Shown here: positions 15,040-45,855 of the stretch, in pieces
Position numbering within the stretch: the first letter of the stretch is position 1
Layout of the letters: each line of letters opens with the position of its first letter
Assembly (NCBI RefSeq): GCF_026626745.1
Contig: NZ_JAPNJW010000002.1
Coordinates: 1,254,151-1,318,150, forward strand
Length of the DNA: 64,000 nucleotides
From: Nannocystis sp. RBIL2
GTDB lineage: Bacteria; Myxococcota_A; Polyangia; Nannocystales; Nannocystaceae
Direction: 5' to 3'
Position numbers and translations under genes: made by a program
The notes under the pieces: model-generated
Database searches by the model: none
What the model saw: only the letters and a program-made list of their open reading frames with translations
What the model was told of the DNA's origin: nothing

Positions 15040-15165
15040 GAATAAAGTTAAAAAGTGCGCACGGGCCCGCGGGCCGCAGGTCACGGCCTGTTAGAGCCTT
15101 TTTTGTAATTGAGCATGCAATTTGATCCGTCGATATTGTGACGAACTCGCCTATATTGCCGCGCC
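15040..15165 (+). promoter_or_regulatory. AT-rich promoter-like region upstream of prmA (candidate TTGAGC-N17-GATATT)
   Basis: gaataaagttaaaaagtg ... ttttttgtaattgagcatgcaatttgatccgtcgatattgtgacg, strongly AT-enriched relative to window. Confidence 0.35.
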
Positions 15166-16134
15166 ATGCGTGAGACAGCAGAGACGACCGCCGAACCGTG
15201 GGCGACGCTTTTGGTCCAGCTCCGCGGCCGGTCCGACGACGACGGCCAGGGCCTCGACCTCGGCGAGCTGACCGAGGCGTCGGAGCGGCTCGAGGCGCTG
15301 GCGACGCTGATCGCCGAGGACCCGCGCGCTGCGGGCGTGGAGACGCGGGACACGTCGACCCTCGGCAGTCGGTGCGAGATCCCCGAGTTGACGATTTACA
15401 CCACCCCCGACGGCCTCGAAGGCCTCATTGCCGAGGTCGAGCGGCTCGGCGCCGACCTGCTTCTGCCGCTGCGGCTGACCCCGGCGGTGCGCACCGACGA
15501 CGACTGGCGCGACACGTGGAAGCAGTTCTACGCGCCGCTGGTGTTCTCGGCCGCGACGACCACGCTGCTGGTGCGGCCGAGCTGGATCGATCGCCGGCCC
15601 GGCGACCCGGAGCTCGAGCTGGTCCTCGACCCCGGCCGCGCCTTCGGCACCGGCCAGCACGAGACCACGCGGCTGTGCCTCGAGCTGCTGGTCGCCCTCG
15701 CCGAGGCCGGCGCGCGCCCCGACCGCGTGCTCGACCTCGGCTGCGGCTCCGGCATCCTGGCCCTCGCCGCGGCGCGGCTGTTCCCGCAGGCCGCGGTGGT
15801 CGCCGCCGACAATGATCCCGAGGCCGCCGACACCACCGCCGAGAACGCCGCTGCCAACAAGCTAGAAGACCGGCTCGAGATCCGGGCCGCGACCGTCTTG
15901 GAACTTTCGGACAGCTTCGATCTGATCCTCGCCAACATCCGCCCCGGCGTGCTGATCCCGATCGCCGGCGACCTCGCGCGCCGCCTCGCCCCCGGCGGCG
16001 CCGTCGTCCTCAGCGGCGTGCTCGGCGAGGAGGCCGAGGACGTGCTCGCCGCCTACACCGCGGCCGGGCTGGCGCTGGCCGACCGCCGCGACCTCGCCGA
16101 GTGGTGCGCGCTGGTCCTGCGAGCGGCCGGATGA
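15166..16134 (+). CDS. prmA: ribosomal protein L11 methyltransferase
   Basis: VLDLGCGSGILALAAARL SAM motif, PrmA-like length and N-domain; stop overlaps rsmE start (ATGA). Confidence 0.8.
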   Translation: MRETAETTAEPWATLLVQLRGRSDDDGQGLDLGELTEASERLEALATLIAEDPRAAGVETRDTSTLGSRCEIPELTIYTTPDGLEGLIAEVERLGADLLLPLRLTPAVRTDDDWRDTWKQFYAPLVFSAATTTLLVRPSWIDRRPGDPELELVLDPGRAFGTGQHETTRLCLELLVALAEAGARPDRVLDLGCGSGILALAAARLFPQAAVVAADNDPEAADTTAENAAANKLEDRLEIRAATVLELSDSFDLILANIRPGVLIPIAGDLARRLAPGGAVVLSGVLGEEAEDVLAAYTAAGLALADRRDLAEWCALVLRAAG

Positions 16135-16820
16135 GCACGCGGGTGTTCGTGGGCGCGCCGGCCGACCCGGCGCGTGTCGACCTGGACGCAGCCGAGTCGC
16201 ACTACCTCCGGCGGGTCCGCCGGGTCGGCGACGGCGCGCGCATCGAGGCGATCGACGACCACGGCGCCCTGTGGCTGGCCGAGGTCGTCGGCGGCGACGC
16301 GCGCGGCACCACCCTGAAGTTGCTCGAGCAACGAACGGTGCCGGCCCCCGCGCGCGAGGTCGTGGTCCTGCTCGGCATGCCCGAGCCGGCCACCGTGCTG
16401 GACGTGCTGCCGGCGCTGTGCGAGATCGGCGTCGCCGAGGTCGTGCTGGTCCGCTGCGCCCGCAGCCAGGGCGCGGCGCCCGGCGGCGAACGGATCGCGC
16501 GGGTGCTGCGAGCGGCGCAGCGTCAGTGCGGCAGGCCGCGCGCGCCTGCGATCTCGGGACCCGTCGATCTCCGCGAGGCCACGCACCGGCGCACCGACCT
16601 CCCCGGCTTGTTCGCGTGGGAGGAATTGCGCGCGACATCGAGCGACGCGCCGGCGGTCACGGCGGGTGCTCGTGTGTGCGTGGGGCCCGAAGGTGGGTTT
16701 ACCCCCGAGGAGGCGGCGCTGCTGCGCGCCGCGGGCTTCCGCGCGCTCGGCCTCGGGCCCTACACGCTGCGCACCGAGACGGCGGCGCTGGTCGCTGTCG
16801 CTCGCGTGATGTTCGCCTGA
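16131..16820 (+). CDS. rsmE: 16S rRNA (uracil1498-N3)-methyltransferase RsmE family
   Basis: MSTRVFVGAP...HYLRRVRRV...VLLGMPEPATVLDVLPALCEIGVAEVVLV...VCVGPEGGFTPEE, RsmE/SPOUT signatures. Confidence 0.8.
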   Translation: MSTRVFVGAPADPARVDLDAAESHYLRRVRRVGDGARIEAIDDHGALWLAEVVGGDARGTTLKLLEQRTVPAPAREVVVLLGMPEPATVLDVLPALCEIGVAEVVLVRCARSQGAAPGGERIARVLRAAQRQCGRPRAPAISGPVDLREATHRRTDLPGLFAWEELRATSSDAPAVTAGARVCVGPEGGFTPEEAALLRAAGFRALGLGPYTLRTETAALVAVARVMFA

Positions 16821-16874
16821 GCGCCGGCGGGGACCCGCCGCGCCGCGCGGGGACGGACCGGGAGGCCCGGGGCC

Positions 16875-17474
16875 GTGTTATGGTGCGCGCCGATGGCGTT
16901 TTGGTCCCGCAAGGAGCGACCCGCACCGTGTCCGAGCTGCGACGCGGCGCTGGACATCGGCCTCGTCAAGGACGGGCAACCGACGTGCCCGGCGTGCGGG
17001 CAAGCGCTGGTGCCGGTGCGCGTCGCCGGCTTCTGGCGTCGCCTCGCCGCCGCGGTGGTCGACGCCGCGATCCTGCTCGTCACCGCCGGGCCGCTGCATC
17101 TCGGGCTGCAGCGCGTGATCGGCGATGCCAGCCCGGTGCGCGGCGCCTTCTCGTGGGCCGGCCTGCTCCAGCTCTTGACCGTCGAGCCGCTCGAGATCCT
17201 GGTGTGGCTGGCGCCGCTCCTGGTGATGGTCGCGTTCTACTTCGTGCTCTTCATCGCCCTGTCCGGAAGGACACCCGGGCAGAAGCTCACCGGGATCCGC
17301 GTGGTCCACCGCGCCGGCGGCAAGGTCGGTCCGGTGCGCGCGACGGTGCGTTTCGCGGGCACCGCCGTCGGCCTGGTACCCGGCGGCCTCGGCTCGCTAT
17401 GGATGGCCTTCGACCGCGAGAAGCGGGCCTTCCACGACTACCTGACAGGCACCTACGTCGTGAGGGAACAGTGA
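16875..17474 (+). CDS. RDD family membrane protein with N-terminal zinc-ribbon (CPSC...CPAC)
   Basis: GTG 16875 with GGAGG 9 nt upstream (alt ATG 16893); RDD motif region RFAGTAVGLVPGGLGSLWMAFDREKRAFHDYLTGTYVV. Confidence 0.7.
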   Translation: MLWCAPMAFWSRKERPAPCPSCDAALDIGLVKDGQPTCPACGQALVPVRVAGFWRRLAAAVVDAAILLVTAGPLHLGLQRVIGDASPVRGAFSWAGLLQLLTVEPLEILVWLAPLLVMVAFYFVLFIALSGRTPGQKLTGIRVVHRAGGKVGPVRATVRFAGTAVGLVPGGLGSLWMAFDREKRAFHDYLTGTYVVREQ

Positions 17475-20400
17475 GCCTCCTCCTGCGCCACCTCGAAGCC
17501 AACGGCCCGCTCTCGCGCGCCGATCTCGAGGCCGCGACCCGGCGGCAGCAGCTGGCCGGCGGCAGCCTCGACACCGCGATCCTCGAGCTCGGGCTGATGA
17601 CCCCGCTGCAGCTCGACGCCCTGCTGCAGAGCGCCTGCGGCCTCCCCGGCGCGCCGGTGCGGCTGCTCGAGCGCGGGCCGACCCGTCCCTGGGAACATGT
17701 CCCGAGAGACCTGGTCGACATCGGCTGGGCCATGCCGCTCGCGCAGGAGGACGGCCGGCTGATCGTCGCCGTCCACCCCGACCTGCCCGACGCCAAGCTC
17801 GGCCAGCTCTACCGCATGGTCCGCGGCTTCTACCCGGTCGTCGCGCCCGAGTGCTGCCTGGCCAAGATCGCCGCCGAGCGCACCGGCTCGATCCTCGCCC
17901 CGCGCTACGCGCTGATCCTGCTCGACTACCTCGAGGCGCTGCGCACCGCCTCGATCACCATCAGCCTGATGCCGGGCGCCGCCGAGCCGCGTCCGAGCGA
18001 AGCGGCTGTCCCTGCGGACAGTCGGGCGGAAGACGCACCTGTCCCAACGGACAGGCAGACGACGGAGGTCCGCGCCGAGGCAGCTGTCCCTGGGGACAGG
18101 CCGACATCCGAGGCGCGCGAGGGGGCACCTGTCCCCGCGGACAGGCAACCGGCCGATGCCCGGGGCGCAGATGCAGCTGTCCCTGCGGACAGGTCGCACG
18201 CCGACGCGCGACCGGAGCCGTCCGGCGCAGACACGCCGGTCGACGCTCGCATCGCCGACGCGCCGAGCGCCGGCGATCGCCAGGCGACCAGCTCGGACCC
18301 GAGCCAGGGATCCGACACCCCGGCCCGTCGCACCGAGGCGCCCACCGCCACCCACGGGCTGGAGGTCGAGGCCGGAGGCCCTGCCCTCGATTCGTCGCGG
18401 ACCGGTGGGTCTGCGAGCGACCAGGTCGCCGCTGCTCATGTGGAAGCTCCTGTCCCTGCGGACAGGTCCGCCATCGACGCGAAGGTAGACGGCACCGAGG
18501 CCAGGCCTGCCGCCGCCCCGAGGGCCGACGCCGCGGACGCCACGCAGACCACCCCTGTCGCGGCGGACGGGACGACCGCGGGCGTGCGACCGGTGTCGCT
18601 GGCCGACGCGCTGCTGGCCGACGTACCTGTCCCCTCGGACAGGCAGATGGCCGGCCCGCGCCCGGCGGCGATGTCCGGGCCGAACACCGCGGCGCGCGCG
18701 ACGGGTTCGCCGTCCGGCGCGCCACCGCCGTCGGAGGCCGGCTCGCCGCGGACGGGCACGCCCGACGACGCCGCCGCGACGGCGCCTGTCCCCGGGGACA
18801 GGCCGGGCGACTCGCCCGCACCTGCCCTCAAGGACAGCCGCAACGAGGCGATTGACGCGGACCGAGCTCGCCCGGCGAACGGTTCGACGCTCACCGCGGG
18901 TTCCTCCCCCGCAGCGCCGACTCTCGCCGATTCGCCGACATCCGACTCCGACGCCCGCGCCCACGCGCCTCGCACCTCCGACGAGCTCGCCGCAGACCGT
19001 GCGGCCGCCGCGACCAGCAGTTCCGCGACGACCCCGGCCGCCACACCTGTCCCTCAGGACAGCCGGGCCGCAGCATCGACGCCGCCGAGCGTCAACGCCG
19101 CGCCCGCACCTGTCCCCGCGGACAGCTCCGCTTCAAACGCCTCGGCCCTGCCCTCCGGCCGCGAGCCCGCGCGTGACGCTGCACCTGTCTCTGAGACCAG
19201 GTCGCCCCAGCTCGACACCCCGAGCCACGCCGCTGCGGGGCGCCGGACCGAGACCGCCCCCACGCCTGCCGCCGCGGCGAGCCGCCAGACGGCGGCGTAC
19301 GACTCGCGGGCGCCCGAGCCCGACCCGGCACCCGCCGCCAATCGGCCGCCCTCGACGCGGCCCTCGCCCGTCCCCGTCGCCCCGGACGCCCCGCTCATCG
19401 ACCCCGGCGGCTTCGAGGACGAGAACGCCTCGCTGGCGGCGATGGCCATCGCCCCCGACACGCCGCTCATCATCCTGCCGCCGGCGACCACGCCGCGACC
19501 GGTGACCCCAGCCCTCGGGGTGCCGATCTATTCCGACACCTCGTCTGGCAATTGGGACAGGCGCACCCTCGTCGGCATCCCGGTAGGCGTGGCGCCCGCC
19601 CCCGCCCCCGCCCCCGACAAGCCCGCGGCCGCGCACGGCCCCAGCAACGGCGTCGCTCGCCCCACGGCCGCATCGAGTCCACCTGTCCCTTCGGCCAGCC
19701 CCGCCGAGCCCGCGCCGAGCCCGCCCGTCCCTTCGGCCAGCCCCGCCGAGCCCGCGCCGAGCCCGCCTGTCTCTTCGACCAGCTCCTCGGAGGCCGCGCC
19801 GAGCGCCCCCGAAGCCGCGTCTGACGAGGATCTGGTCGAGTCGTCGACGCGCAAGCCGCCGGCCCTGCCGCAGCCGATGGTCATGACTCTGGCGCAGCGC
19901 CTCGACGCCGCCCGCGCCACTCTGGCCACCGCGCGCGAGCGCGACCGGATCACCGAGGCCCTGGTGCGGGCCGCGAGCCTGATCGCCCCGCGCGTGGCCC
20001 TGTTCGGGGTCAAGCGCGAGGGTCTGCGCGTCCTGGCCGCGCCCGGCAGCGCGCTGCGGATGTCCGAGGGTCTCGTCATCCCGCTGCCCGAGGGCGGCCT
20101 GCTCGATCGCGCAGTGTCGGGCCAGGGTCCGCTGCACCTCCTGATCGAGCCGAGCCTGTCGTTCGCAGTCGGCCAGCCGCTGGGGATCCCCTGCATCTTC
20201 GAGCCCGTGCTCGCCGGCGGCCGCACCGTGCTGATGCTCTACCTCGACCGCTCCGGCGTCGCCTTCGATCCGCGCGAGCGGACCGTCCTGCGCGAGCTGT
20301 GCGACACGGCCCGGCAGAGCCTCGAGGCGCTGCTGCGGCTGCTCGGCTGGGTGGTGCCCGGCGGCACGCCCGGGGCCGGCCCCGCCGACCGCACGCGCCC

Positions 20401-22780
20401 GTCGATCCGGCCGGCGACCCCGATCGTCACCGTCGACGAGGCCGACGCGCCGGCCACGACGCCACCTGTCTCTGCGGACAGCTCCGAAACCGAGCCGCCG
20501 TCCGGCGAGACCTCGGCCGAACCCGACGATTCCGAGCCGCCGCCGACCGCGAGCGGGGCGGCGAGTGAACCTGGCTTCGGGGACAGCAACAGCCTCGCCA
20601 GCCGGCTGCGCAGCCGCGGCAACCGCGGGCGCGCCGTCATCACCCTGAAGAACCCGATCCGCCGCGACGACCCGGCGACCGTGACGCCGCTGCCGGTCCG
20701 CGCCGAGAGCTCCGCGCTCGTGCGGGCCCAGACGCTCGCCGACGAGCCGCCGCCCCCGCCCGTCGACGAGCCGGAGTACGAGGACCTCACCGACGACCCC
20801 GAGGAGCTCGACAGCCCGCCGCCGCGCCGTGACGGCCCCGGCCTCGGCCTCGCGCCGGTCCCGGTGCCTCTCGGCCCCGAGAACGGCCAGGACAGCCCGC
20901 TCGTGGCCCGCTTCGCCGCGATGTTCACCAAGCCGCCGCTGCCGGCGGTGACGATCGACCTGTCCGATCGGCCCAATACCTTCGGACATGCGCGATCGGA
21001 CAGCCCCGAGGCGCCGCCAGCGAGCCCGCAGCCGGAGATGCCGGGCTGGATCGCCACCGCCGAGCCGTCAGGCATCGAGGACCCGCTGCCCGTGGCCGCG
21101 GCGCTGCGCTCGGCCGCGACCGCCGCCGAGGCCCGCGTCGACCACGATCCGGCGGCGACGCTGCCGGGCGCGCCGCGGGTCATGCTCGAGGAGACCACGC
21201 GGGCATCGACGCGCGACGAGTTCGACGAGTGGCCGCGCGCCGCCTCCGACACCCCGACCATCCTCGACCTCTCGCCGCCGCCGACCCACGAGCCGCTGCT
21301 GGTCGAGACCCGCGCCGCGCCCGACGCCAAGACCGTCCTCGACCTCCCGCGGGTCGACTCCCCGGTCCCGCCCGAGACCCTGATCCCCAACCTCGTCGCC
21401 CCGCCCGGCACGCCCGGCGCGGGCCGCCGTCGCCGCGCGAACGAGGCGGCCGAGGACGAGCCGGTATTGGTGATCCCGAAGACGCTGCGGCGCTCGGGCG
21501 GCCTCACCGCCACGCCGCACCCGATGGCCCGTCGCAGCGACCCCGACGAGCTCGAGGGCGGTCCGACGCTGACGATGCCGACCACTCTGATCGGCCCGCG
21601 CAGCGGCCGGCGACGCGGCAAGCACGACCCGCGCCCTGACTCCTCGTCCAGCGCCCTGACCATGCCCCGGCTGGTACGCGAGGCGGAGGCCGACGACGCC
21701 GCGGCCCAGTCGACTGCGAATGGGATCGCTCCTTCGGAACATGCCCCTGAGGACATGTCCCCGGCGACCGGTTCCAAAGCGCAGGTCGACGCGAGCGCGT
21801 CGCCAGCCGGCGCCGCCGAGGCGAGCGGGTCCGTCGCGGCCCCGCCGGCCGACGAGCGCCCTGCGGCCGACGAGCTGTCGAGCGAGGAGCCGGCCGCGGC
21901 CGCCGACGCCGCCCCCGGCGCGGCGCTCGACGACCGCGAGATCGACGCGGTGATCGAGGGCTTTTTGCAGAACCCGGCCGAGTGGACCAGCGTGTCGCGG
22001 CTGCGCGCGCTCGACGAGCGCGGCCTGGCCCGCCTGGCGGCGCGCTTCCCGGGGCCCATCGACCTCGCCAACGCGACCAACTTCCCGCCGCCGAGCGCTC
22101 ACGGCCCGCTGCTGCGCGCGTGCGTCGAGCTCGGCCACGCGGTCAGCCCGCACGTGCTCGCCCTGTTCGCCAGCGCACGGCCGCAGATCCGCTTCTACGC
22201 CGCGTTCCTGTTCCAGGAGCTGCGCGACCCGAAGTGCCTGCGGCCGCTCGGCGAGCTGGCGTTCGACTCCGACCCCGACGTGCGGCTGATCGCCACCCGC
22301 GTGCTCGAGTCCTACAGCCGCGTGCCTGACTTCGCAACGGTGGCCGCGGAGATCCGCGGCGAGCTCGAGAGCTCGGACCGCGACCGCCAGCTGCTCGCCG
22401 TCGAGGCCGCCGGCACCCTGCGCGACACCCTCGCAGTGCCGCGTCTCATCGACTTGCTGGCGGTCCGCGACAAGCACGTCCGCGAGGCCGCGCTCGAGGC
22501 CCTGTGCTCGATCACCGCCAAGCACCACGGCTACCGCGCCCAGCGCTGGCGGGCCTGGTACGCCGAGCACGGCCAGGAGCCGCGCATCGAGTGGGTCATC
22601 GACGGCCTGCGCCACCGCGACGAGGCCGTGCGCCGCTGGGCCGCCGACGAGCTGGCGCGGATCACCGGCCAGCGGATCCCGTTCCCGGCGGAGGGCGACC
22701 GCCGCAGTCGCGAGCTGGCCCTGCGCGCCTGGCAAGCCTGGTGGGACAGCAACCGCGAGGACTTCACCGCCGGTAGCTGA
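17471..22780 (+). CDS. giant multidomain protein (1769 aa): MshEN/T2SSE_N-like N-terminal domain, disordered Pro/Ala/Asp repeat region, GAF-like segment, C-terminal HEAT repeats
   Basis: GTG at 17471 overlaps RDD stop (GTGA) with GAGGGA 4 nt upstream; N-term SLDTAILELGLMTPLQLDALLQ resembles MshEN/GspE-N motif; aa 170-770 low complexity with xxAPVPxDRxx repeats; ITEALVRAASLIAPRVALFGV...MLYLD GAF-like; C-term PRLIDLLAVRDKHVREAALEAL HEAT-type repeats; ORF 16271..22780 upstream portion judged noncoding (overlaps rsmE). Confidence 0.7.
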   Translation: MSLLLRHLEANGPLSRADLEAATRRQQLAGGSLDTAILELGLMTPLQLDALLQSACGLPGAPVRLLERGPTRPWEHVPRDLVDIGWAMPLAQEDGRLIVAVHPDLPDAKLGQLYRMVRGFYPVVAPECCLAKIAAERTGSILAPRYALILLDYLEALRTASITISLMPGAAEPRPSEAAVPADSRAEDAPVPTDRQTTEVRAEAAVPGDRPTSEAREGAPVPADRQPADARGADAAVPADRSHADARPEPSGADTPVDARIADAPSAGDRQATSSDPSQGSDTPARRTEAPTATHGLEVEAGGPALDSSRTGGSASDQVAAAHVEAPVPADRSAIDAKVDGTEARPAAAPRADAADATQTTPVAADGTTAGVRPVSLADALLADVPVPSDRQMAGPRPAAMSGPNTAARATGSPSGAPPPSEAGSPRTGTPDDAAATAPVPGDRPGDSPAPALKDSRNEAIDADRARPANGSTLTAGSSPAAPTLADSPTSDSDARAHAPRTSDELAADRAAAATSSSATTPAATPVPQDSRAAASTPPSVNAAPAPVPADSSASNASALPSGREPARDAAPVSETRSPQLDTPSHAAAGRRTETAPTPAAAASRQTAAYDSRAPEPDPAPAANRPPSTRPSPVPVAPDAPLIDPGGFEDENASLAAMAIAPDTPLIILPPATTPRPVTPALGVPIYSDTSSGNWDRRTLVGIPVGVAPAPAPAPDKPAAAHGPSNGVARPTAASSPPVPSASPAEPAPSPPVPSASPAEPAPSPPVSSTSSSEAAPSAPEAASDEDLVESSTRKPPALPQPMVMTLAQRLDAARATLATARERDRITEALVRAASLIAPRVALFGVKREGLRVLAAPGSALRMSEGLVIPLPEGGLLDRAVSGQGPLHLLIEPSLSFAVGQPLGIPCIFEPVLAGGRTVLMLYLDRSGVAFDPRERTVLRELCDTARQSLEALLRLLGWVVPGGTPGAGPADRTRPSIRPATPIVTVDEADAPATTPPVSADSSETEPPSGETSAEPDDSEPPPTASGAASEPGFGDSNSLASRLRSRGNRGRAVITLKNPIRRDDPATVTPLPVRAESSALVRAQTLADEPPPPPVDEPEYEDLTDDPEELDSPPPRRDGPGLGLAPVPVPLGPENGQDSPLVARFAAMFTKPPLPAVTIDLSDRPNTFGHARSDSPEAPPASPQPEMPGWIATAEPSGIEDPLPVAAALRSAATAAEARVDHDPAATLPGAPRVMLEETTRASTRDEFDEWPRAASDTPTILDLSPPPTHEPLLVETRAAPDAKTVLDLPRVDSPVPPETLIPNLVAPPGTPGAGRRRRANEAAEDEPVLVIPKTLRRSGGLTATPHPMARRSDPDELEGGPTLTMPTTLIGPRSGRRRGKHDPRPDSSSSALTMPRLVREAEADDAAAQSTANGIAPSEHAPEDMSPATGSKAQVDASASPAGAAEASGSVAAPPADERPAADELSSEEPAAAADAAPGAALDDREIDAVIEGFLQNPAEWTSVSRLRALDERGLARLAARFPGPIDLANATNFPPPSAHGPLLRACVELGHAVSPHVLALFASARPQIRFYAAFLFQELRDPKCLRPLGELAFDSDPDVRLIATRVLESYSRVPDFATVAAEIRGELESSDRDRQLLAVEAAGTLRDTLAVPRLIDLLAVRDKHVREAALEALCSITAKHHGYRAQRWRAWYAEHGQEPRIEWVIDGLRHRDEAVRRWAADELARITGQRIPFPAEGDRRSRELALRAWQAWWDSNREDFTAGS
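18006..19783. repeat. 14 or more in-frame copies of the CCTGTCC-N4-GGACAGG palindrome (first five as 39-47 bp tandem units) inside the giant ORF
   Basis: e.g. ctgtccctgcggacag 18006, cctgtcccaacggacagg 18038, ctgtccctggggacagg 18084, cctgtccccgcggacagg 18128, ctgtccctgcggacagg 18177, 18440, 18627, 18784, 19048, 19109, degenerate 19185, 19682, 19727, 19766; further copies 20464 and 21731. Confidence 0.85.
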
Positions 22781-25223: not shown

Positions 25224-27623
25224 TCACACCCCTGCCGCCTGCGCGACCTCGCCGAGCGGGCGGGCGCGGCCGATCGCCGGGTCGGCGGCGGCAAGATCTT
25301 CGTAGGCCTCCGGGTTGGCCTGCTTGAGCGCCCCGCCGGGGGCCTCGGCCGTGCCGATGAGCTCGCGGATGCCGCGCGCCGACCCGTAGTAGTTGCCGTT
25401 GTCGTGGTCCTCGTCGCTGTTGCAGCGGCGGATCAGCGAGCGGGACAGCCGCGGCAGCTGCAGCATGTCGAGCGCCATCTCCCACAGGCCGTCGACGAGG
25501 TTCTGGTCGGCCGGGAACTCGAGCAGCCCGGCCAGCAACAGCAGCAGCCCGGCGCGCTGGCCGAGCGGCGTGTCGAGCGGCGGCGCGTCGACGAGGTAGC
25601 CGAGGTCGATCGCCCGCCACCACGCCTCCGCGGCGACCAGCAAGCGCTTGAGCTCCTGCGCGCTGTGGCTGAGGTGGCTGTGAAACAGCACGTCGGCGGT
25701 CAGCGCGTCACCGGCCGGATCGCGGACGTAGCGGACCACCGCGGGCAAGCGGCCGAGCTCCCCGCGCGGGCCCTTGCCGGCCGGCACGTCGCGCGGCGGC
25801 TCGGCGCCGCTGAAGAAGCCGCCGGCCCGGAACGCGTAGAGGATCTCGGCCTGGCCCGGCAAGCTGTCCCAAAGTTCAGAGTACTGCGTGACCCGGTTGA
25901 GGCTGCCGGCGGCCCAGCCGAGCCCGCGCGCGGCCTCGCCGCTGATCTGCGACGGCGACGCGCCGGGGTCGCGCGGCACCGCCGAGTCCTTGAGGCTCTC
26001 GGCGATCTCGACCAGGCGGAAGTCGAGGAAGCCGTCGTAGTAGTCGGCCTTGCCGTCGCGGTTGATGTCCTGGTAGCGCGCCACCACCAGCGGGTGGGCC
26101 GGGCCGATGAACTGCACGAAGTCGGGCGTGCGGCTCTGGCGGTGGTGCCACTGGGCCTTGCGGATCCGCTGGTCGATCGCCGCGAAGTCCTCCTCCTCGG
26201 CGAGGCCGCGCAGGATCGCCACGAAGCAGTCGATGCCCTCGGAGGCCACCACCTTGTCGCCCTCGCCGGTGCGGAAGTAGGTCGAGTCCCAGCTCGAGAA
26301 GATGTCGGCGTCGGGGAACATACGGGCGATGGCGAAGCGCGTGGTCAGCCCGGCGCACTGGCAGTTCATCATCAGCTTGTAGCCGACCTGCTGGGTCTGG
26401 ATCGCCGAGGCGCGCATGTCGTAGGCGCCGAGGTTGGCGTGGCGACTGACGAGCAAGCCGGTGAAGAACTCCTGCGACATCTCGAAGTTCTCGTCGCGCG
26501 GCGAGGCCGAGCGGGCGAACAGCAAGAACTCGCGCCCGCCCTTGCCGACGAACGGCGCCTGCAGCACCACGTAGCCCTCGCCCCACAGGTTCGGCGGCTT
26601 CGGCGTGCCCTCGGGCGCGGCGATCTTGGTGAAGCCGTACTTGGTCTGCAGCAGCTCGACCTCACCGGGGGAGAACTCGGACGCCGAGGCCAGGGCGAAC
26701 CGCCACGGCCCGGTCAGCGTGGCGTACGGCGGGGCCTGCCGCGACAGCGAGCGCAGCAGCGCCTGCGCGCGCGCCTGCTGCTCGGTTCGCAGGGCCGGGC
26801 CGCGCAGCGACAGCAGCGAGATGGCGTGCGCCCGCAGCTCGCTGCGCCCGCCGGGACCGGCCTCCTCGTCGACCAGTCGGAAGATGCGTCCGGCGGCTGC
26901 GTCGGCGGCGGCGCGGAACTCGGGATCCTTGAGCACCGTGGCGACCACGTGCGACAGCACGGTCAGCGCCGCCGAGCGCAGCTGCACCGCATCGTCGACC
27001 GCCCCGTGCGGGCCTGCGGGCGCCGCCGCGGTCAGCACCGCCTCGACCTGCTGCTGCAGCGCCCCCGCCTGCGCCGGCGTCAGCTGCTCGGTCCGCAGCG
27101 GTTCGTCGGGGAAGAACGCGCTCGGCGGGAACAGGCACTCGAAGCTCGACGTCCGCCGCGCGGAGATCCAGCGCGCCGCAGCGACGAACACCGGCAGCGC
27201 TGACATGTCCTTCGGGGCAGGTCCGGCCGCGTCGCCGGCCAGCTCGCCGGACGGCAGCAGGAACAGGGGAGCCGCGCCGTGGATGCCGGCGGTCAGGTCG
27301 AGCGCCGCCGCCTGCGGCTCCGGCCTGTCCCGAAGACCCTGTCCCGAGAGACCGGCGAGGCGCTGGCGGACGGCGCGGCGGCCGGGGAAGTCGAGCAGGA
27401 TCTTGTGCCCGACCGACGATCGCAGCAGCGCCTTGTCGGCCGCCGAGGGTTCGGCGACGAGGGCGACGTGGTAGCCGCGCTCGCCGGTGAGGTGGATCTG
27501 CACGCCCGGGCCGCTGCGAGCGCGCTCGAAGCTGCGGGTGGCCGTGCTGCCCGACTTGACCAGGACGGCGGCGAAACGCGTGGCCGCGGCGCCACGCCCG
27601 ATCCGAATCTCGATCTCCTTCAT
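25224..27623 (-). CDS. large hypothetical protein (799 aa)
   Basis: ATG at 27623 preceded by GGAGGG 4 nt upstream (ORF track extends to 27668); contains DINRDGKADYYDG Ca-binding-like loop; N-terminal 150 aa carries in-frame palindromic elements at 27199-27224 and 27324-27350. Confidence 0.6.
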   Translation of the reverse strand: MKEIEIRIGRGAAATRFAAVLVKSGSTATRSFERARSGPGVQIHLTGERGYHVALVAEPSAADKALLRSSVGHKILLDFPGRRAVRQRLAGLSGQGLRDRPEPQAAALDLTAGIHGAAPLFLLPSGELAGDAAGPAPKDMSALPVFVAAARWISARRTSSFECLFPPSAFFPDEPLRTEQLTPAQAGALQQQVEAVLTAAAPAGPHGAVDDAVQLRSAALTVLSHVVATVLKDPEFRAAADAAAGRIFRLVDEEAGPGGRSELRAHAISLLSLRGPALRTEQQARAQALLRSLSRQAPPYATLTGPWRFALASASEFSPGEVELLQTKYGFTKIAAPEGTPKPPNLWGEGYVVLQAPFVGKGGREFLLFARSASPRDENFEMSQEFFTGLLVSRHANLGAYDMRASAIQTQQVGYKLMMNCQCAGLTTRFAIARMFPDADIFSSWDSTYFRTGEGDKVVASEGIDCFVAILRGLAEEEDFAAIDQRIRKAQWHHRQSRTPDFVQFIGPAHPLVVARYQDINRDGKADYYDGFLDFRLVEIAESLKDSAVPRDPGASPSQISGEAARGLGWAAGSLNRVTQYSELWDSLPGQAEILYAFRAGGFFSGAEPPRDVPAGKGPRGELGRLPAVVRYVRDPAGDALTADVLFHSHLSHSAQELKRLLVAAEAWWRAIDLGYLVDAPPLDTPLGQRAGLLLLLAGLLEFPADQNLVDGLWEMALDMLQLPRLSRSLIRRCNSDEDHDNGNYYGSARGIRELIGTAEAPGGALKQANPEAYEDLAAADPAIGRARPLGEVAQAAGV

Positions 27624-27716
27624 CGCACCCTCCGAAGGCGCGAGCGTAACACGCTGCCCCGACGTCACCGGACGCGCGCTCCCACGCGCGCGAGCGCGGC
27701 GGCGCCGGAGAAACGC

Positions 27717-27787: not shown

Positions 27788-29206
27788 CTACTTCAGCGCG
27801 CCGCGGTGCGCGTGCGATTCGGGTGGCACGGGAGGCATCCCCGTCTGCGGAGCGACGCGGTATTCGTTGAGGCGGTACTGAATCTTGCGCGGCGAGATCC
27901 CGAGGATCTTCGCGGCCTTGCTCGTGCTGCCGCCGACGTGCTCGAGCGTCCGCAGGATCGCGTAGCGCTCGATCTCTCGCAGCGACGCGCCCGGGATCAC
28001 GGGCGCCGAGTCGTCGCCGCGCATCTTCGACATCAGCTCGCGCGGCAGGTCGCGCGGCTCGATCTCCGCCCCGCGCGCGAGCACCACCGCCCGCTCGACG
28101 CTGTTCTCGAGCTGACGGATGTTGCCCGGCCAGTCGCACCCGAGCAGCACGCCGAGCGCTCGCTCGCTGAAGCCGACCATCGGTCGGTGCGCCTGGGCGG
28201 CGAACTGCCGCAGGAAGTGCATCGCCAGCAGCGGGATGTCGTCCCGGCGCTCGCGCAGCGACGGCATGCGCAGGCTGACCACGTTGAGGCGGTAGTACAG
28301 GTCCTCGCGCAGCTTGCTGCCCTTGGCCGCGCCGAGGTCCTGGCTGGTCGCCGCGATCACGCGGACATCGGCCTGCAGCGGCTCGCTGTCGCCGACGCGG
28401 CAGAACGCCCGGTCCTGCAGGAACCGCAGCAGCGCCGCCTGTACGCCCGCCGGCAGCTCGTCGACGTCGGCGAGGAAGAGCGTGCCGCCGTCGGCCTCGA
28501 CGAGCCGGCCCTCGCGCAGCACCGCCTCGCCGTCGCGCACCCCGAACAGCTCGCGGGCGCACGCCTCGTCGGTGAAGCCGCTGCATTGCAGGCTGACGAA
28601 CGGGCCGCGGCGGCCGCTCCACTGGTGGATCAGGCGCGCCAGGTGTTGCTTGCCGGTGCCGCGTTCGCCGGTGACGAGCACCGACACCGGCGAGTCGGCG
28701 ACCTGGCGCGCGAGGCCGAGGAGGTCGCGGAACACCTTCGACTGGCCGATGATGCCGGCCCGCTGGTCGGCGCGCTGGCTCTCGAGCGCCGAGCGGAGGT
28801 GCCGGGCCTCGCGTTGCAGCGCGCGGTGTCGCAGGACCCGCTGCAGCACGATGAGCAGCTGCGGCAGGTCGACGGGTTTGCTGAGGTAATCGTCGGCGCC
28901 GAGGTGGAGCGCCTCGACGGCGCCCTCGACCGAGCCGAAGGCAGTCATCACAACGACCGCGACGTCAGGGTAGAGTTCACGAAGTTTGGATATGAGCTCG
29001 AGGCCGTTGAGGCCGGGCATCTTGACGTCGGTGATGACGACATCCGGCTCCCACTGGTCGATGCGTCCGAGCGCCTTGTATCCGTCGGCGGCGGACTGGA
29101 CTTCATAACTTTCCTCGCGCAGCAGCTCGCTGAGTGCAGAGCGTGCGCTTGACTCGTCATCGACCACCAAAATTCGGGTCGGCCTGGTCTCTTCAAATTT
29201 CGTCAT
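27788..29206 (-). CDS. sigma-54-dependent response regulator (NtrC family: REC + AAA+ + HTH)
   Basis: ILVVDDE...D..MPGLNG receiver, GESGTGK Walker A, GAFTGA sigma-54 contact motif variant ([11 protein letters not shown] region), C-terminal HTH; ATG 29206 with GGAGGT 7 nt upstream. Confidence 0.8.
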
Positions 29207-29248
29207 AGGCGGTACCTCCGCGGGGGCTTCGCCTACTCTGCGGGCGGA

Positions 29249-29266
29249 AGATGCGCGGGTGTAATG
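29249..29266. promoter_or_regulatory. near-perfect palindrome TTTGCGCG-N2-CGCGCAAA about 45 nt upstream of the activator gene start; two TGGCACG motifs lie 75-110 nt further (29339, 29357)
   Basis: read directly; candidate operator or terminator hairpin. Confidence 0.3.
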
Positions 29267-29369
29267 CATACTTTGCGCGCTCGCGCAAACCCGCGACCCC
29301 CGCCCACGACGTTTCTCCTATCGTTGCGAGATTTTCATGTCTGGCACGAAAGGCGCACTGGCACGGCGT

Positions 29370-30917
29370 TCAGCCAGTCGGCGCGTCATTCGGCGGCGGC
29401 GCCTCGCCCTCGCGAGGTGCCTCGGCCGGCGCCTGGCCGTCCGGCTGGCCTTCGGGCGGGACCTGACCGTCGCCCTGGCCTTGGCCCTGACCACCCTCGG
29501 GCTGCTGCACTTCCTCCATCGCCGGCGGCAGCGGTGGCGGCGGCAGTTGCTCGGCCGGGCGCTCGTCTTGCCGGGCCTCGGGCTCCGGCTCGGGCGGCGG
29601 CGGCTGGGTCGACGGCGTCGGCGGCGGCTCGGCCGGACGCATCTCGGAGTCAGGCGTCTTCGTCGGCTCGCGGTCCGTCCCGCCGGTCTCGCCGGCGCCG
29701 ACGCTCGGCTGCTCCGGCCCGTTGTTGCGCTCGAGCGCGTCCTTTTCCTCGGTCTTCTTCGTCGAACGCGACTTGGTGCGCGCCTTCTTGGCCGCCTCGC
29801 GCTCGGCGTTCTTCTGCCGCCGCTCGAGCATCCGCTCCTCGGTGGTCTTGGTCTTGACGCCCATGAAGCGCGGCTTGCCGACGGTGCCCCGCAGCTTGAA
29901 GCCGAGCCAGCCTTCGTCCGGCGGATCCATCCGCGACGACGGGCCAGCAGTCTGCACCGCGAAGCGCAGCGTCTCGCTCTTGTCTTGCAGCGCCTGCGTG
30001 ACCAGCAGCTTCATCTGGAACGCGAACTCGGACTTCGAGAACGGATCCTTGAGCGGCATGTCGCCGGTGACCTCGAGCTCGATGTCCGCGCTCTTGGTCT
30101 TGAAGTCCTCGACGGTGATCCGGCCCTCCGACACCTTCAGCTTGCCGACCAGGGTGCCGAGGTCGATCTCGGGGATGGTGATGCCCTTGGCGGTGATGCC
30201 CGACGAGCCGGGGATGAACAGCAGCTCCTGGCCGTCACCGATCAAGCACGAGGCACACTCGAGCGAGACCGACCCCTCGGCCTTCTCGAACAGGTTCTCC
30301 GGCATCGTCATGTCGACGTGGAGGGCGAACAGGCCGCGCAGCGGAGCGCCCAGCGCCTGCTGCAGCTTCGGCACCGAGCCGAGCGGCAGCTCGGTGACCT
30401 CGATCTTGATGCTCGACTCGCTGCTGCTGCGCGCGTACTCGGCGTGGATCGGCGCCTCGTCGAGCACCGTGTCGACCTCGACATCGATGTTGCCGAGCAG
30501 CAGGTAGCCCAGGATCGAGAAGTCGACGTCGACCGCGTCGAGCACCATCTGGTGCGGGATCTGGCCCGGGTGCGACGGCGCGTACGTCCACGTGACGTTG
30601 TAGAGCGTCGCGCTGCCCCACGGCCGCACCGACATGTCCTCGATGTCGATGAGGTAGCCGGCCTGGCGCGCCTGGTGGCCGATCCGCCACGCGAGCGCGC
30701 GGGTCGGCAGGCTGATCCAGATGAAGGCGAAGAACACGAACACGGCCAGGAACACCCAGCCGGCGGAGCTGCGGAGGCGCCGCGAGAACAGGCGCATGCG
30801 ATCGCCGAAGCCGCCGATCGGGGCGGCCGGCGCGACCATCGTGCCGCTCGCGGGCGGGGCCGCGGGCAGGTCGCCGCCGCGGCGGAGGTTGGCGAGGTTG
30901 GGCAGGCGGATCTTCAC
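29370..30917 (-). CDS. gspN: type II secretion system protein GspN-like
   Basis: last gene of gsp operon; GTG start with AGGAGGG upstream overlapping gspM stop; single N-terminal TM (WVFLAVFVFFAFIWISL), C-terminal low-complexity PEPE tail. Confidence 0.6.
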   Translation of the reverse strand: MKIRLPNLANLRRGGDLPAAPPASGTMVAPAAPIGGFGDRMRLFSRRLRSSAGWVFLAVFVFFAFIWISLPTRALAWRIGHQARQAGYLIDIEDMSVRPWGSATLYNVTWTYAPSHPGQIPHQMVLDAVDVDFSILGYLLLGNIDVEVDTVLDEAPIHAEYARSSSESSIKIEVTELPLGSVPKLQQALGAPLRGLFALHVDMTMPENLFEKAEGSVSLECASCLIGDGQELLFIPGSSGITAKGITIPEIDLGTLVGKLKVSEGRITVEDFKTKSADIELEVTGDMPLKDPFSKSEFAFQMKLLVTQALQDKSETLRFAVQTAGPSSRMDPPDEGWLGFKLRGTVGKPRFMGVKTKTTEERMLERRQKNAEREAAKKARTKSRSTKKTEEKDALERNNGPEQPSVGAGETGGTDREPTKTPDSEMRPAEPPPTPSTQPPPPEPEPEARQDERPAEQLPPPPLPPAMEEVQQPEGGQGQGQGDGQVPPEGQPDGQAPAEAPREGEAPPPNDAPTG

Positions 30918-31518: not shown

Positions 31519-33273
31519 TCACGACTCGGTCTCCGCGCTGCTGTAGCAGTCGTGCTCGATGTTGGGGTCGAACACCTTCTTGGTGCCCTCGTCGCGCACC
31601 TTGGCGACCTGGAACGGGATGACGCAGGGCAGCGTCTGCAGCAGCTTGTTCTTGAACCGCTCCTGCGCCGACGAGCGCGTGGCGGAGGCGCGGAACTGGA
31701 TCGCGCGCGGCCGGATCTCGATCAGCGACAGCACGAATTCGTCGTCCCACACGACGCCCGCCGAGCCTTCGACCGAGGGCAGCTGCACCGGCGACGTCGG
31801 CGTCGCCACCGACGAGCTCTCGGCGTCAGGGCTGGCGCCCTCCTCCGCGACCATCGGCGCCGGCGCCGGCGCCGGCTTCGGACCGGTCGGCGTGGCCGCC
31901 TTGACGAAGCCTGCGAGCACGTCGAGCGCGCCCCGCTGCGGGATGAGCTTGGTGATGTCGCGGCCGTCGACGGCGTTGAGGCGCTCCTCGATTTCGGCCT
32001 TCGAAATGAGCGCCTCGCCGAACACCTTGTGGCTGGCCTCGCCGAGCTCCTCCTCGTAGGCCGCGCGCTCCGCCTCGAGCGCGCTCGAGCCGATCACGGT
32101 GTCGACCACGCCGAACGCGAGGATCGCGAACCCGAGCGCGGCGACGGTGGCGATCCGCTCGGCGATCCAGCTGCCGTCGCCGCCGCGCTGGACGGCGGCG
32201 TCCTTGTGCAGCTGGATCAGCGGCCGGCGGGCGCAGCCGACGGCGCCGCCGAGCGCGGCCGACATGGCCGTCCAGTCATGTCCCGCGAGACCTTTGAGCC
32301 CGAGGCTCTCGCGCGGGCGGGCGCGCTCGGTCGGCAGCCCGAGCTGCTCGGCCAGGTAGGCGTCGAGGCCGCGGAGGTTGGCGCCGCCGCCGGACAGGCG
32401 CAGTTGCACCACCTCGGCCGAGAACTCGGCCCGCAGCCACATGCGCGTGTGCTCGATCTCCCGCACCACCGGCTCGAGCGCGCGGGCCACGAGCGTCGCC
32501 GACTCGAGCTGCTCCGCCGACAGGTCGCCCTGACCGCGGTGCGGCAGGAAGGCGTTGTCGCGCTTGGCCGCCTCAGCCTCGGCGTCGCTGAGCTGATAGC
32601 GCTGCTGCAGCGCGCGGGTGACGTGCACGCCGCCGCGGCGGAGCATGCGGGCCGCGAGCGGGCCCTTGGCGCCGAAGGCCACCAGGTCGGTGGTCGCGTG
32701 GCCGATGTCGAGGCCGAGCACCACCGGCGTGCGCGCCTCGGCCGGCGCGCCCTTGGCTGGCTCGGGCAGGTCGGCGGTGAGCACCTGCGCGGTCGCCAGG
32801 ACGTCGACCGTGATGAGCTTGACGTCGATCGTCGCCGCCTTGAACGCGGCCTGGACCTGGTCGATGGCGGAGCGGCGGACCGCGACCGCGAGCGCCTGGC
32901 CGCCGCCGCCGGAGACGGTCGCGGGCACGTGGTCGAGCTCGAGGTTCTCGAGCGGGACCGGGAACTGGCCCTCGGCCTCGAACGCGATCGCCTGGGCGAT
33001 CCGGCGCGGGTCGCTGAACGGGAACTTGAACACGCGATAGGCCGCGAAGCTGCCGGGCAGCACCACGCCGATCGGGTAGTGGTTCCAGCCGCGGCGGCGC
33101 AGCACGGCGATGCCGATGTCGAGCGCCGCGGCCAGCGAGGTGTCGCCCTGCGGGGTGAGCGTCACCGGCTCGACGACCGTCTCGAGCACCTGGATGGTGC
33201 GCAGGCCGGCGTTGATGAGCACGGCCTTGACTTCGGAGGTTCCGAGGTCGAGTCCTACGTACTTCTGAGCCAC
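31519..33273 (-). CDS. gspL: type II secretion system protein GspL-like (actin-like ATPase fold N-domain)
   Basis: MAQKYVGLDLGTSEVKAVL PilM/GspL-like start, position in operon. Confidence 0.65.
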   Translation of the reverse strand: MAQKYVGLDLGTSEVKAVLINAGLRTIQVLETVVEPVTLTPQGDTSLAAALDIGIAVLRRRGWNHYPIGVVLPGSFAAYRVFKFPFSDPRRIAQAIAFEAEGQFPVPLENLELDHVPATVSGGGGQALAVAVRRSAIDQVQAAFKAATIDVKLITVDVLATAQVLTADLPEPAKGAPAEARTPVVLGLDIGHATTDLVAFGAKGPLAARMLRRGGVHVTRALQQRYQLSDAEAEAAKRDNAFLPHRGQGDLSAEQLESATLVARALEPVVREIEHTRMWLRAEFSAEVVQLRLSGGGANLRGLDAYLAEQLGLPTERARPRESLGLKGLAGHDWTAMSAALGGAVGCARRPLIQLHKDAAVQRGGDGSWIAERIATVAALGFAILAFGVVDTVIGSSALEAERAAYEEELGEASHKVFGEALISKAEIEERLNAVDGRDITKLIPQRGALDVLAGFVKAATPTGPKPAPAPAPMVAEEGASPDAESSSVATPTSPVQLPSVEGSAGVVWDDEFVLSLIEIRPRAIQFRASATRSSAQERFKNKLLQTLPCVIPFQVAKVRDEGTKKVFDPNIEHDCYSSAETES

Positions 33274-33313
33274 GTGCGGCAGTCCTTGCGGTTGAAGATG
33301 GGAGCCATGGAGA

Positions 33314-44276: not shown

Positions 44277-45686
<1,410 letters not shown>

Positions 45687-45855
45687 GGGCGCTCGAGTCG
45701 AACCCGCGGTGTGCAAGCCGGGGTCCTCGGTGAAAAGCGAATGATTCTAAGGCAACTCCTGGAGCCAGAACGAGGCTGTCACGCGCAATTGTCAGGCCGT
45801 CCGAGGCGGGATGCCAAAATGGCAATCGCGGCCCTCGCGCCCAACTCCCGGCGCC

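Follow-up and report, generated by a model that had tools for sequence, protein, structure and literature searches.

The frgA gene of Myxococcus xanthus has been known genetically since 2000, and in 2016 the architecture of its product was listed for M. xanthus FrgA and the Myxococcales as "MshEN - UNK - HEAT", the central domain being recorded as "UNK" (Wang et al. 2016, Suppl. Table 4). The gene is followed by those of the histidine kinase FrgB and the NtrC-type regulator FrgC (PMC3892784). The M. xanthus frgA mutant shows reduced swarming and forms frizzy aggregates; proximity labelling with MglA recovered FrgA together with other proteins that have been linked to motility (PMC10630675), and a preprint reports that frgA insertions behave like frzF/E/B insertions in transposon sequencing (bioRxiv 10.64898/2026.08.28.747804). 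Here we analyse a gene on the forward strand of a 64-kb stretch of Nannocystis sp. RBIL2 DNA (contig NZ_JAPNJW010000002.1, positions 1,254,151 to 1,318,150; "the window", in whose numbering all coordinates are given). Judged from sequence homology and gene order, it is an orthologue of M. xanthus FrgA (MXAN_1130). As the best overall explanation we propose, with moderate confidence, that its product is a membrane-tethered, non-enzymatic scaffold in the control of motility and aggregation.

The gene, its modules and its relatives

The 1769-amino acid (aa) product is composed of three folded modules separated by two long linkers:

17471..22780, + strand: complete FrgA-family gene, 1769 aa plus stop (open reading frame, GC3 frame plot, full-length orthologues, FrgA homology)
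17471..17965, + strand: MshEN/GSPII-type domain, aa 1-165 (PDB profile search, AlphaFold2, Foldseek, alignments)
17966..19885, + strand: disordered linker 1, aa 166-804, 639 aa (composition, motif count, tandem repeats)
19886..20344, + strand: divergent GAF-fold domain, aa about 806-958 (AlphaFold2, Foldseek, hhalign to the FrgA central region)
20345..21937, + strand: disordered linker 2, aa 963-1489, 527 aa (composition)
21938..22777, + strand: C-terminal HEAT-repeat domain with a Trp-rich tail, aa 1490-1769 (Pfam, PDB matches, FrgA BLASTP)

All three modules align with FrgA. By hhalign, the N-domain matches FrgA at 98.4% (E=8.8e-15, residues 2-156 to 3-156) and the GAF domain matches residues 374-534 of Archangium FrgA at 96.7% (E=4.1e-10), and by BLASTP the N-terminus and the HEAT region are 30% (E=8e-5) and 33% (242 aa, E=3e-24) identical to the Archangium protein. 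A scan of species-representative genomes yielded 54 related loci, most of them in Nannocystales (Nannocystis, Plesiocystis, Enhygromyxa, Paraliomyxa), with weaker ones in Polyangiaceae, Anaeromyxobacteraceae and Myxococcaceae. One of these, an 845-aa protein from a Myxococcaceae metagenome-assembled genome (MAG; L053), retrieves Cystobacterineae proteins, several of which are named "FrgA protein" by NCBI and which carry Pfam MshEN and HEAT_2; their consensus N-terminus agrees with that of M. xanthus FrgA as printed by Wang et al. 2016 (supplement). A sequence-only reading of the window had considered that the architecture could not be assigned to a characterised protein. In fact its three modules are colinear with those of M. 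xanthus FrgA, the synteny is shared, and the architecture had already been published, since it is the one listed in 2016.

The same reading described a single open reading frame (ORF), and this holds. The gene lies in a longer stop-free frame (16271-22780), in which the GTG at 17471 gives the 1769-aa product. The window has a GC content of about 70-77%, and from ~17530 to 22750 the third codon position of the gene frame is the most GC-rich one (GC3, 0.73-1.00); upstream of 17471 the high-GC codon position shifts to the frame of the preceding RDD gene. A hypothetical protein of Nannocystis sp. ILAH1 (OV203_34725) is 99% identical over the full length, and seven other Nannocystis proteins are 60-87% identical; these eight have 1673-1840 aa. 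The best local alignment takes in 100% of the query for three of the eight Nannocystis proteins, and for a fourth at 81% identity. As the orthologues are full-length and the single frame has no stop, a frameshift or a set of several genes is excluded. The notion that this is a spurious long ORF of 75% GC DNA, or a fusion of genes by frameshift, could draw on the many antisense ORFs of 500-600 aa across the same region and on the low-complexity sequence that makes up about two thirds of the protein. It has virtually no credence left: GC3 is high in one frame over all 5.3 kb, eight Nannocystis orthologues are full-length, the order of the three modules is kept in dozens of Myxococcota loci while linker lengths vary, and both terminal modules recur in 56 of the 143 new representatives of the GAF-profile search (see below). 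GC3, the orthologues and the conserved module order already refute it.

BLASTP against 28 homologues of 981-1936 aa delimits three stretches of conservation (aa 1-165, about 827-958 and 1490-1769), which are separated by variable linkers. The order proposed in the sequence-only reading (MshEN-like, disorder, GAF-like, HEAT) is borne out by the PDB profile search, by AlphaFold2 models with Foldseek and by Pfam HEAT_2. Its expectations of profile matches held for HEAT; the MshEN model (T2SSE_N, PF05157) gives no match and GAF stays below its cut-off.

In the N-domain, an MshEN_N half of four helices, which holds two degenerate motifs of 24 residues at the canonical 5-residue spacing, precedes an alpha/beta MshEN_C half. 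Since PF05157 does not match the N-domain in 16 family members, even at E<=10, the assignment of its fold is based on the PDB profile search, AlphaFold2 with Foldseek, and hhalign. A 16-sequence profile retrieved from the PDB eight top matches that were all N-domains of PilF, PilB or MshE (best E=3e-6, Thermus PilF). The model has a mean predicted local distance difference test score (pLDDT) of 92.5, and its top 20 Foldseek matches are all N-domains of MshE, PilF, PilB or XpsE, including MshE with cyclic di-GMP (c-di-GMP), PilF GSPII-A/B, Xanthomonas PilB-N and XpsE-N; the structure prediction suggested by the earlier reading thus agrees with its proposal for this domain. Invariant in the family are GGSLDT, H102-P103 within a VAVHPDLPD block, and E127 within PECCL. 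Pfam DUF2949 (56 residues), the sole match in the Pfam test of the 16 members, covers aa 4-52 (17480-17626), in the MshEN_N half, in 14 of 16 members (best E=1.7e-7), and DUF2949 may itself be an MshEN_N-like domain.

For the central block, Pfam GAF (PF01590) reaches E=0.054 and 14.5 bits, below the cut-off of 22.4, and the sequence profile of the block found neither a GAF structure nor any other meaningful match in the PDB. Its AlphaFold2 model (pLDDT 89.3) gives 50 top Foldseek matches in the PDB that are all GAF domains (E to 1e-5, template modelling score 0.6-0.67), and a distant homologue (P0093) passes Pfam GAF_2 across the aligned region (30.9 bits vs 28.6). According to this structural modelling, what the published FrgA architecture calls "UNK" is a divergent GAF fold, which is new. 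At the C-terminus, Pfam HEAT_2 (E=8e-13, 48.9 bits vs a cut-off of 27.7) and HEAT (E=1e-5) match, as do alphaRep (HEAT-like) proteins of the PDB (E=1e-13). Pfam and NCBIfam detect no enzyme domain in the protein, NCBIfam giving zero matches and holding no FrgA-specific model, and Pfam finds no T2SSE ATPase domain (PF00437). The Nannocystis protein is a cytoplasmic one with three binding-type folds and no recognisable enzyme domain.

The GAF block served as profile in an exhaustive search, which gave 789 cluster representatives at E<=1e-3, 64 of them at E<=1e-10. The make-up of the best 150 of the 789, of which 143 were new, was as follows:

56/143: GAF with FrgA-type N- and C-terminal modules, median 984 aa
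40/143: GAF with an MshEN N-terminus only, median 418 aa
10/143: GAF with the C-terminal module only, median 636 aa, possibly fragments
37/143: GAF with neither module, median 234 aa, possibly fragments

Pfam applied to ten of the new representatives found PF05157 in nine, one of which is the GAF_2-positive P0093. Two-domain MshEN-GAF proteins of ~400 aa form a sizeable family (e.g. P0089, P0093, P0104 and P0106). It thus appears that MshEN-GAF is the core and that the HEAT repeats are an addition in FrgA.

The first linker (Ala 23%, Pro 17%, net charge -32) corresponds to the ~600 aa of acidic Pro/Ala-rich disorder of the sequence-only reading, which had not separated from it the second one (Pro 17%, Ala 16%, net charge -37). 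Linker 2 is conserved in the genus Nannocystis only. Linker 1 contains ten copies of a [VI]PxD[RS] motif, seven of them PVPxD[RS], between aa 180 and 553 (18008-19129), as opposed to a mean of 0.16 and a maximum of 2 in 2000 shuffles. The consensus aPVPxD[RS] also recurs in five further proteins (P0010, P0011, P0012, P0016 and P0028), and in distant Nannocystaceae orthologues the motif is arrayed in tandem elsewhere in the protein, the periods being 9, 12, 15 and 40 aa, with a constant core and different surrounding repeat units. It is absent from orthologues of roughly 1000 aa, and among 23 Cystobacterineae-type relatives 20 lack it and three have one isolated match each. Two tandem DNA repeats lie inside linker 1, one at 18035-18193 (+ strand; 45-nucleotide (nt) unit, 3.5 copies) encoding PVPxDR units and one at 19674-19811 (+ strand; 42-nt unit, 3.3 copies) encoding SPPVPSASPAEPAP; strains probably vary in length at both of them. 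With respect to the accessible literature, the recurrent linker motif and the linkers that double the length of the protein in Nannocystis are new. A PVPEDR match at 46259 (+ strand) was dismissed, as the methyltransferase-like gene in which it falls is on the minus strand and is not read in that frame.

In one Nannocystis sp. MAG (JADJNN01), two contigs (L009 and L010, the latter ending at a contig edge) each carry a prmA-rsmE-RDD-FrgA-like locus, whose N-domains share 72% and 68% identity with the query; they could be a true pair of paralogues or the result of a mixed bin.

The zinc-ribbon RDD partner and the upstream block

The genes directly upstream and the junction with the FrgA-family gene are the following:

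15130-15157: promoter-like, sigma-70-like site (one found vs 0.1 expected)
15166..16134, + strand: prmA, ribosomal protein L11 methyltransferase (Pfam PrmA E=4e-54), first gene of the block
16101..16820, + strand: rsmE-type RNA methyltransferase, PUA_4 and Methyltrans_RNA (Pfam E=6e-31), second gene of the block
16893..17474, + strand: zinc-ribbon RDD membrane protein, ATG at 16893, 193 aa, orthologues also 193 aa
17462..17474, + strand: translational-coupling junction, with GAGGGA at 17462-17467, GTG at 17471-17473 and the TGA of the RDD gene at 17472-17474

The RDD neighbour and the coupling had both been recognised in the sequence-only reading, and both are confirmed. The RDD protein scores 85 bits with Pfam RDD (cut-off 24.1; profile positions 1-136 of 137) and carries a CPSC-x17-CPAC ribbon, encoded at about 16929-16997, with weak matches to Pfam zinc ribbons. 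An alternative start is the GTG at 16875, which has GGGAGG 9 nt upstream. The junction sequence is gtGAGGGAacaGTGA, in which the GTG start overlaps the RDD stop (GTGA) and is preceded by its own GAGGGA, as can be read directly. Owing to this overlap, FrgA and the inner-membrane RDD protein are expected to be translated together and in linked amounts. The frgA-like gene is the last of the block. A terminator scan of the locus was negative, as one would expect of DNA with 75% GC, and thus marks no end of the operon.

This arrangement is conserved. The order prmA-rsmE-RDD is found directly upstream of the frgA-like gene in nearly all of the 54 loci (about 50), including Anaeromyxobacter and Myxococcaceae, and also in Archangium, where the three genes lie within 9 kb upstream of frgA. 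In 41 of 48 Nannocystales-type loci there is a 4-nt overlap of start and stop (GTGA, TTGA or ATGA), preceded by GTGAGG in 38 of the 41, whereas RDD and frgA are 15-52 nt apart in the Cystobacterineae-type loci analysed. A CxxC...CxxC pair precedes the RDD domain in 46 of 53 loci; the ribbon is present in essentially all complete Nannocystales RDD partners and in Archangium. No study of the partner was found in the literature on the RDD domain and Myxococcus, and we consider this coupled, conserved zinc-ribbon RDD partner of FrgA to be new.

In three Nannocystaceae outside the genus Nannocystis (L002, L058, L059), a gene for an FHA-FHA-ABC transporter fusion (~856 aa) and an ORF of 71-74 aa lie just upstream of prmA; Nannocystis punicea (L060) has a 74-aa ORF there, and the FHA-ABC gene was not called at that position. 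In the window, the region upstream of prmA was scanned for longer ORFs only.

Candidate roles of the protein

The N-terminal fold raises the question of c-di-GMP binding, which the sequence-only reading had suggested. Its motifs were mapped by HMMER alignment to Vibrio cholerae MshE, whose numbering is used, and by a 73-sequence alignment. The domain keeps L10, L14, L39, L43/44, L54, L58 and Q32. Replaced are the Arg and the Gly of either motif as well as the second Gln:

R9 of MshE: L in the Nannocystis protein; H, L or Q in 48 Nannocystales sequences; mostly R in 23 Cystobacterineae FrgA sequences
G11: L in the Nannocystis protein; never G in Nannocystales (n=48) or Cystobacterineae FrgA (n=23)
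R38: S in the Nannocystis protein; S in 48/48 Nannocystales; never R in Cystobacterineae FrgA (n=23)
G40: D in the Nannocystis protein; D in 48/48 Nannocystales and 23/23 Cystobacterineae FrgA
Q61: A in the Nannocystis protein; A in 47/48 Nannocystales; never Q in Cystobacterineae FrgA (n=23)

The half-sites of the protein therefore do not satisfy the contact consensus RLGxx(L/V/I)(L/V/I)xxG(L/V/I)(L/V/I)xxxxLxxxLxxQ. The GspE encoded in the window does have the matching motif that the sequence-only reading had pointed out (RPLGEILIEMGCTTAEALAEGLQAQ). In MshE, G11L makes binding undetectable, G40I causes a 72-fold loss and Q61A a 12-fold loss (Wang 2016, Suppl. Tables 1-2). The NCBIfam model c-di-GMP_motif (NF053729, cut-off 38 bits) does not match the Nannocystis protein, and its relatives score 20-30 bits, below the cut-off (29.6 for a shorter Nannocystales orthologue, 20.6 for Archangium FrgA). 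FrgA itself was listed as a predicted c-di-GMP non-binder (Wang et al. 2016), and PilF GSPII-A, whose motif II is similarly degenerate, shows no c-di-GMP binding. From the replaced contacts, the MshE mutants, the NF053729 result and the non-binder listing, canonical c-di-GMP sensing by the FrgA-family MshEN domain seems unlikely. The strict invariance of GGSLDT shows the former c-di-GMP site to be under continued selection for another function.

A c-di-GMP-responsive scaffold, signalling from its MshEN domain to secretion or motility, would agree with the fold, the two 24-residue half-sites with their exact 5-residue spacer and the retained Leu positions and Q32, and a perfect motif is not always required (Wang 2016). 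We nevertheless regard it as very unlikely, because the replacements are fixed (S38, D40 and A61 in 47-48 of 48 Nannocystales), none of the aligned FrgA sequences has G11, R38, G40 or Q61, the corresponding MshE mutants lose or weaken binding, NF053729 gives no match, and both FrgA as a predicted non-binder and PilF GSPII-A speak against it. Still less credible is a role in assisting or regulating the type II secretion system (T2SS) encoded nearby, in which the GspE-like N-domain would compete for GspL or dock on it. The earlier reading put this system 5 kb away. Its gspC-D-E-F, pseudopilin, gspK and PilM/GspL-like genes occupy 31.5-44.3 kb on the minus strand, with gspE (T2SSE domain 462 bits) at 16 kb from the frgA-like gene and the nearest recognisable gene as follows:

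31519-33531, - strand: PilM_2/GspL-like gene, 8.7 kb from the end of the frgA-like gene

The cluster is complete, its layout is repeated near the frgA-like gene of N. punicea, and the N-domain shares the fold of the XpsE and GspE N-domains. However, four distant loci (L001, L002, L059 and Archangium L057) have no T2SS core gene within 8-10 kb; it is these that carry the absence, the 6-kb downstream flanks of most loci being too short, and tblastn of the window Gsp proteins found no match in 56 loci with such short flanks. Moreover, the gene and the gsp cluster lie on opposite strands with at least five unrelated genes between them, the protein has no ATPase domain, and the conserved synteny is that of prmA-rsmE-RDD. 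Since the layout holds in N. punicea and fails in the four distant loci, the proximity is a matter of synteny at genus level and does not point to a functional link. Thus, for the sequence-only reading, c-di-GMP sensing and the T2SS link both fail their tests, while the gene is real and its description correct.

Between the frgA-like gene and the T2SS cluster, an NtrC-type sigma-54 activator gene (27788-29269) is flanked by ORFs of 814 aa (25224-27668, - strand) and 515 aa (29370-30917, - strand) with good GC3 and no Pfam match, and the far side of the cluster is bordered by a second NtrC-type activator gene (44277-45716); N. punicea has the same arrangement of activators and large ORFs. At 45856-47469 (- strand), where the GC3 filter called no gene, there is an ORF of 537 aa with a DNA-methyltransferase-like core (DPPY motif, "VLDPPYMEG") and long basic and disordered tails.

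Returning to the membrane-tethered scaffold, we propose that FrgA would dock on the cytoplasmic face of the RDD protein, with the MshEN domain acting as a protein-docking module and not as a nucleotide sensor. In T2SS, the N-domain of GspE docks on GspL, and the PilB-N/PilZ structure (PDB 7LKO) is among the Foldseek matches of the N-domain; the proposed docking is modelled by analogy on these two pairs. The GAF domain would supply an input by binding a small ligand or a partner, the HEAT repeats and the PVPxD[RS] motifs of the linkers would recruit further partners, and the whole may act as a membrane-tethered scaffold that controls the behaviour of gliding cells and aggregation. A role of this kind fits the M. 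xanthus frgA phenotype, the proximity to MglA and the frz-like transposon sequencing pattern, and the guess of the sequence-only reading that the protein could be a scaffold linked to motility is in line with it. The biological role suggested for the Nannocystis protein is taken from M. xanthus by analogy.

Several points weigh against this scaffold. We infer the putative contact between FrgA and the RDD protein solely from gene order and the overlapping codons, and the zinc ribbon is missing from some Cystobacterineae and Anaeromyxobacter RDD partners; in Archangium, RDD and frgA are separated by three genes. The genes that follow frgA in Archangium, for a histidine kinase (frgB) and for a regulator of NtrC type (frgC), have no counterparts next to the Nannocystis gene: a tblastn search of the 64-kb window gave no FrgB-like kinase, its two NtrC-type genes lie elsewhere and on the strand opposite to the frgA-like gene, and the other Nannocystales loci with an inspected downstream flank lack frgB/frgC as well. 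Some of the M. xanthus wiring may thus not be transferable to Nannocystis. The invariance of GGSLDT means that a different small ligand could bind in the former c-di-GMP site. Finally, in the work of Cho and colleagues in 2000, the frizzy phenotype of frgA was reportedly rescued extracellularly by wild-type cells and resembled that of an abcA mutant; such extracellular complementation, if as reported, would point to signal production or export and not to intracellular control of motility.

Such a role in signalling would be expected if the RDD protein transported or exported ions or solutes and FrgA were its cytoplasmic regulatory subunit, so that the pair would control how an extracellular signal required for aggregation is produced or exported. 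The sole characterised RDD protein is a Na+(Li+,K+)/H+ antiporter (PMC5996927), the coupling of RDD and frgA is tight and conserved, and GAF domains often gate effector modules. We consider this rather unlikely, though it overlaps with the scaffold explanation and does not exclude it: the RDD protein is small (193 aa), its transport function in the FrgA clade is putative, and according to the newer M. xanthus data FrgA belongs with regulators of reversal and motility, and near MglA. A bolder and quite doubtful extension would make the pair a membrane-anchored multivalent hub, whose motif arrays would recruit many copies of a partner and whose disorder would drive a polar or focal assembly that tunes gliding. 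Here the zinc-ribbon RDD protein would tether FrgA to the inner membrane, the PVPxD[RS] arrays would have expanded independently in Nannocystaceae lineages with their core kept, the candidate motif partner would be, for example, a Ser/Thr kinase, an FHA protein or a motility protein, and a ligand or partner other than c-di-GMP would occupy the old pocket at its invariant GGSLDT site.

Comparison with known systems

The result refines a known family and does not define a new kind of system. For the study of myxobacterial motility and development it offers some leads: the "UNK" domain, modelled as a GAF fold, is common to many MshEN-GAF proteins; the zinc-ribbon RDD protein, usually translationally coupled in Nannocystales-type loci, is the obvious candidate partner of FrgA; and the MshEN domain of the FrgA family should not be treated as a c-di-GMP sensor. 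With the c-di-GMP receptors (MshE, PilB, PilF GSPII-B/C) the Nannocystis protein shares the fold, the 24+5+24 tandem layout and the hydrophobic core, but it lacks the contact residues and the ATPase domain, and its N-domain resembles instead the non-binding members PilF GSPII-A and XpsE. The two-domain MshEN-GAF proteins have the same FrgA-type GAF subtype directly downstream of MshEN; unlike FrgA, they have neither HEAT repeats nor long linkers, and their MshEN passes PF05157. The RDD partner contains the complete RDD domain, including the R/D/D positions, of its family (PF06271, e.g. the Halobacillus andaensis RDD antiporter), and differs from it in an added N-terminal cytoplasmic zinc ribbon and in its constant pairing with FrgA in Myxococcota.

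The closest system is M. xanthus FrgA itself, which is reportedly 883 aa long. It has the same three modules in identical order, each significantly homologous to the Nannocystis protein, it is likewise preceded by prmA, rsmE and RDD, and its MshEN motif II is degenerate in the same way, with x-L-D for R-L-G and A/V for Q. The Nannocystis protein has 1769 aa, compared with 839-925 aa for most Cystobacterineae relatives, the excess being all in the linkers, whose PVPxD[RS] arrays are not found in Cystobacterineae-type relatives. In motif I, position 9 is L, H or Q in Nannocystales and mostly R in Cystobacterineae FrgA, and PF05157 still detects the N-domain of the Cystobacterineae relatives but no longer that of the Nannocystis protein. 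Furthermore, frgB and frgC follow frgA in Cystobacterineae and not in Nannocystis, and the 4-nt overlap with the RDD gene in Nannocystales-type loci is replaced by short gaps in Cystobacterineae-type loci and by three inserted genes in Archangium.

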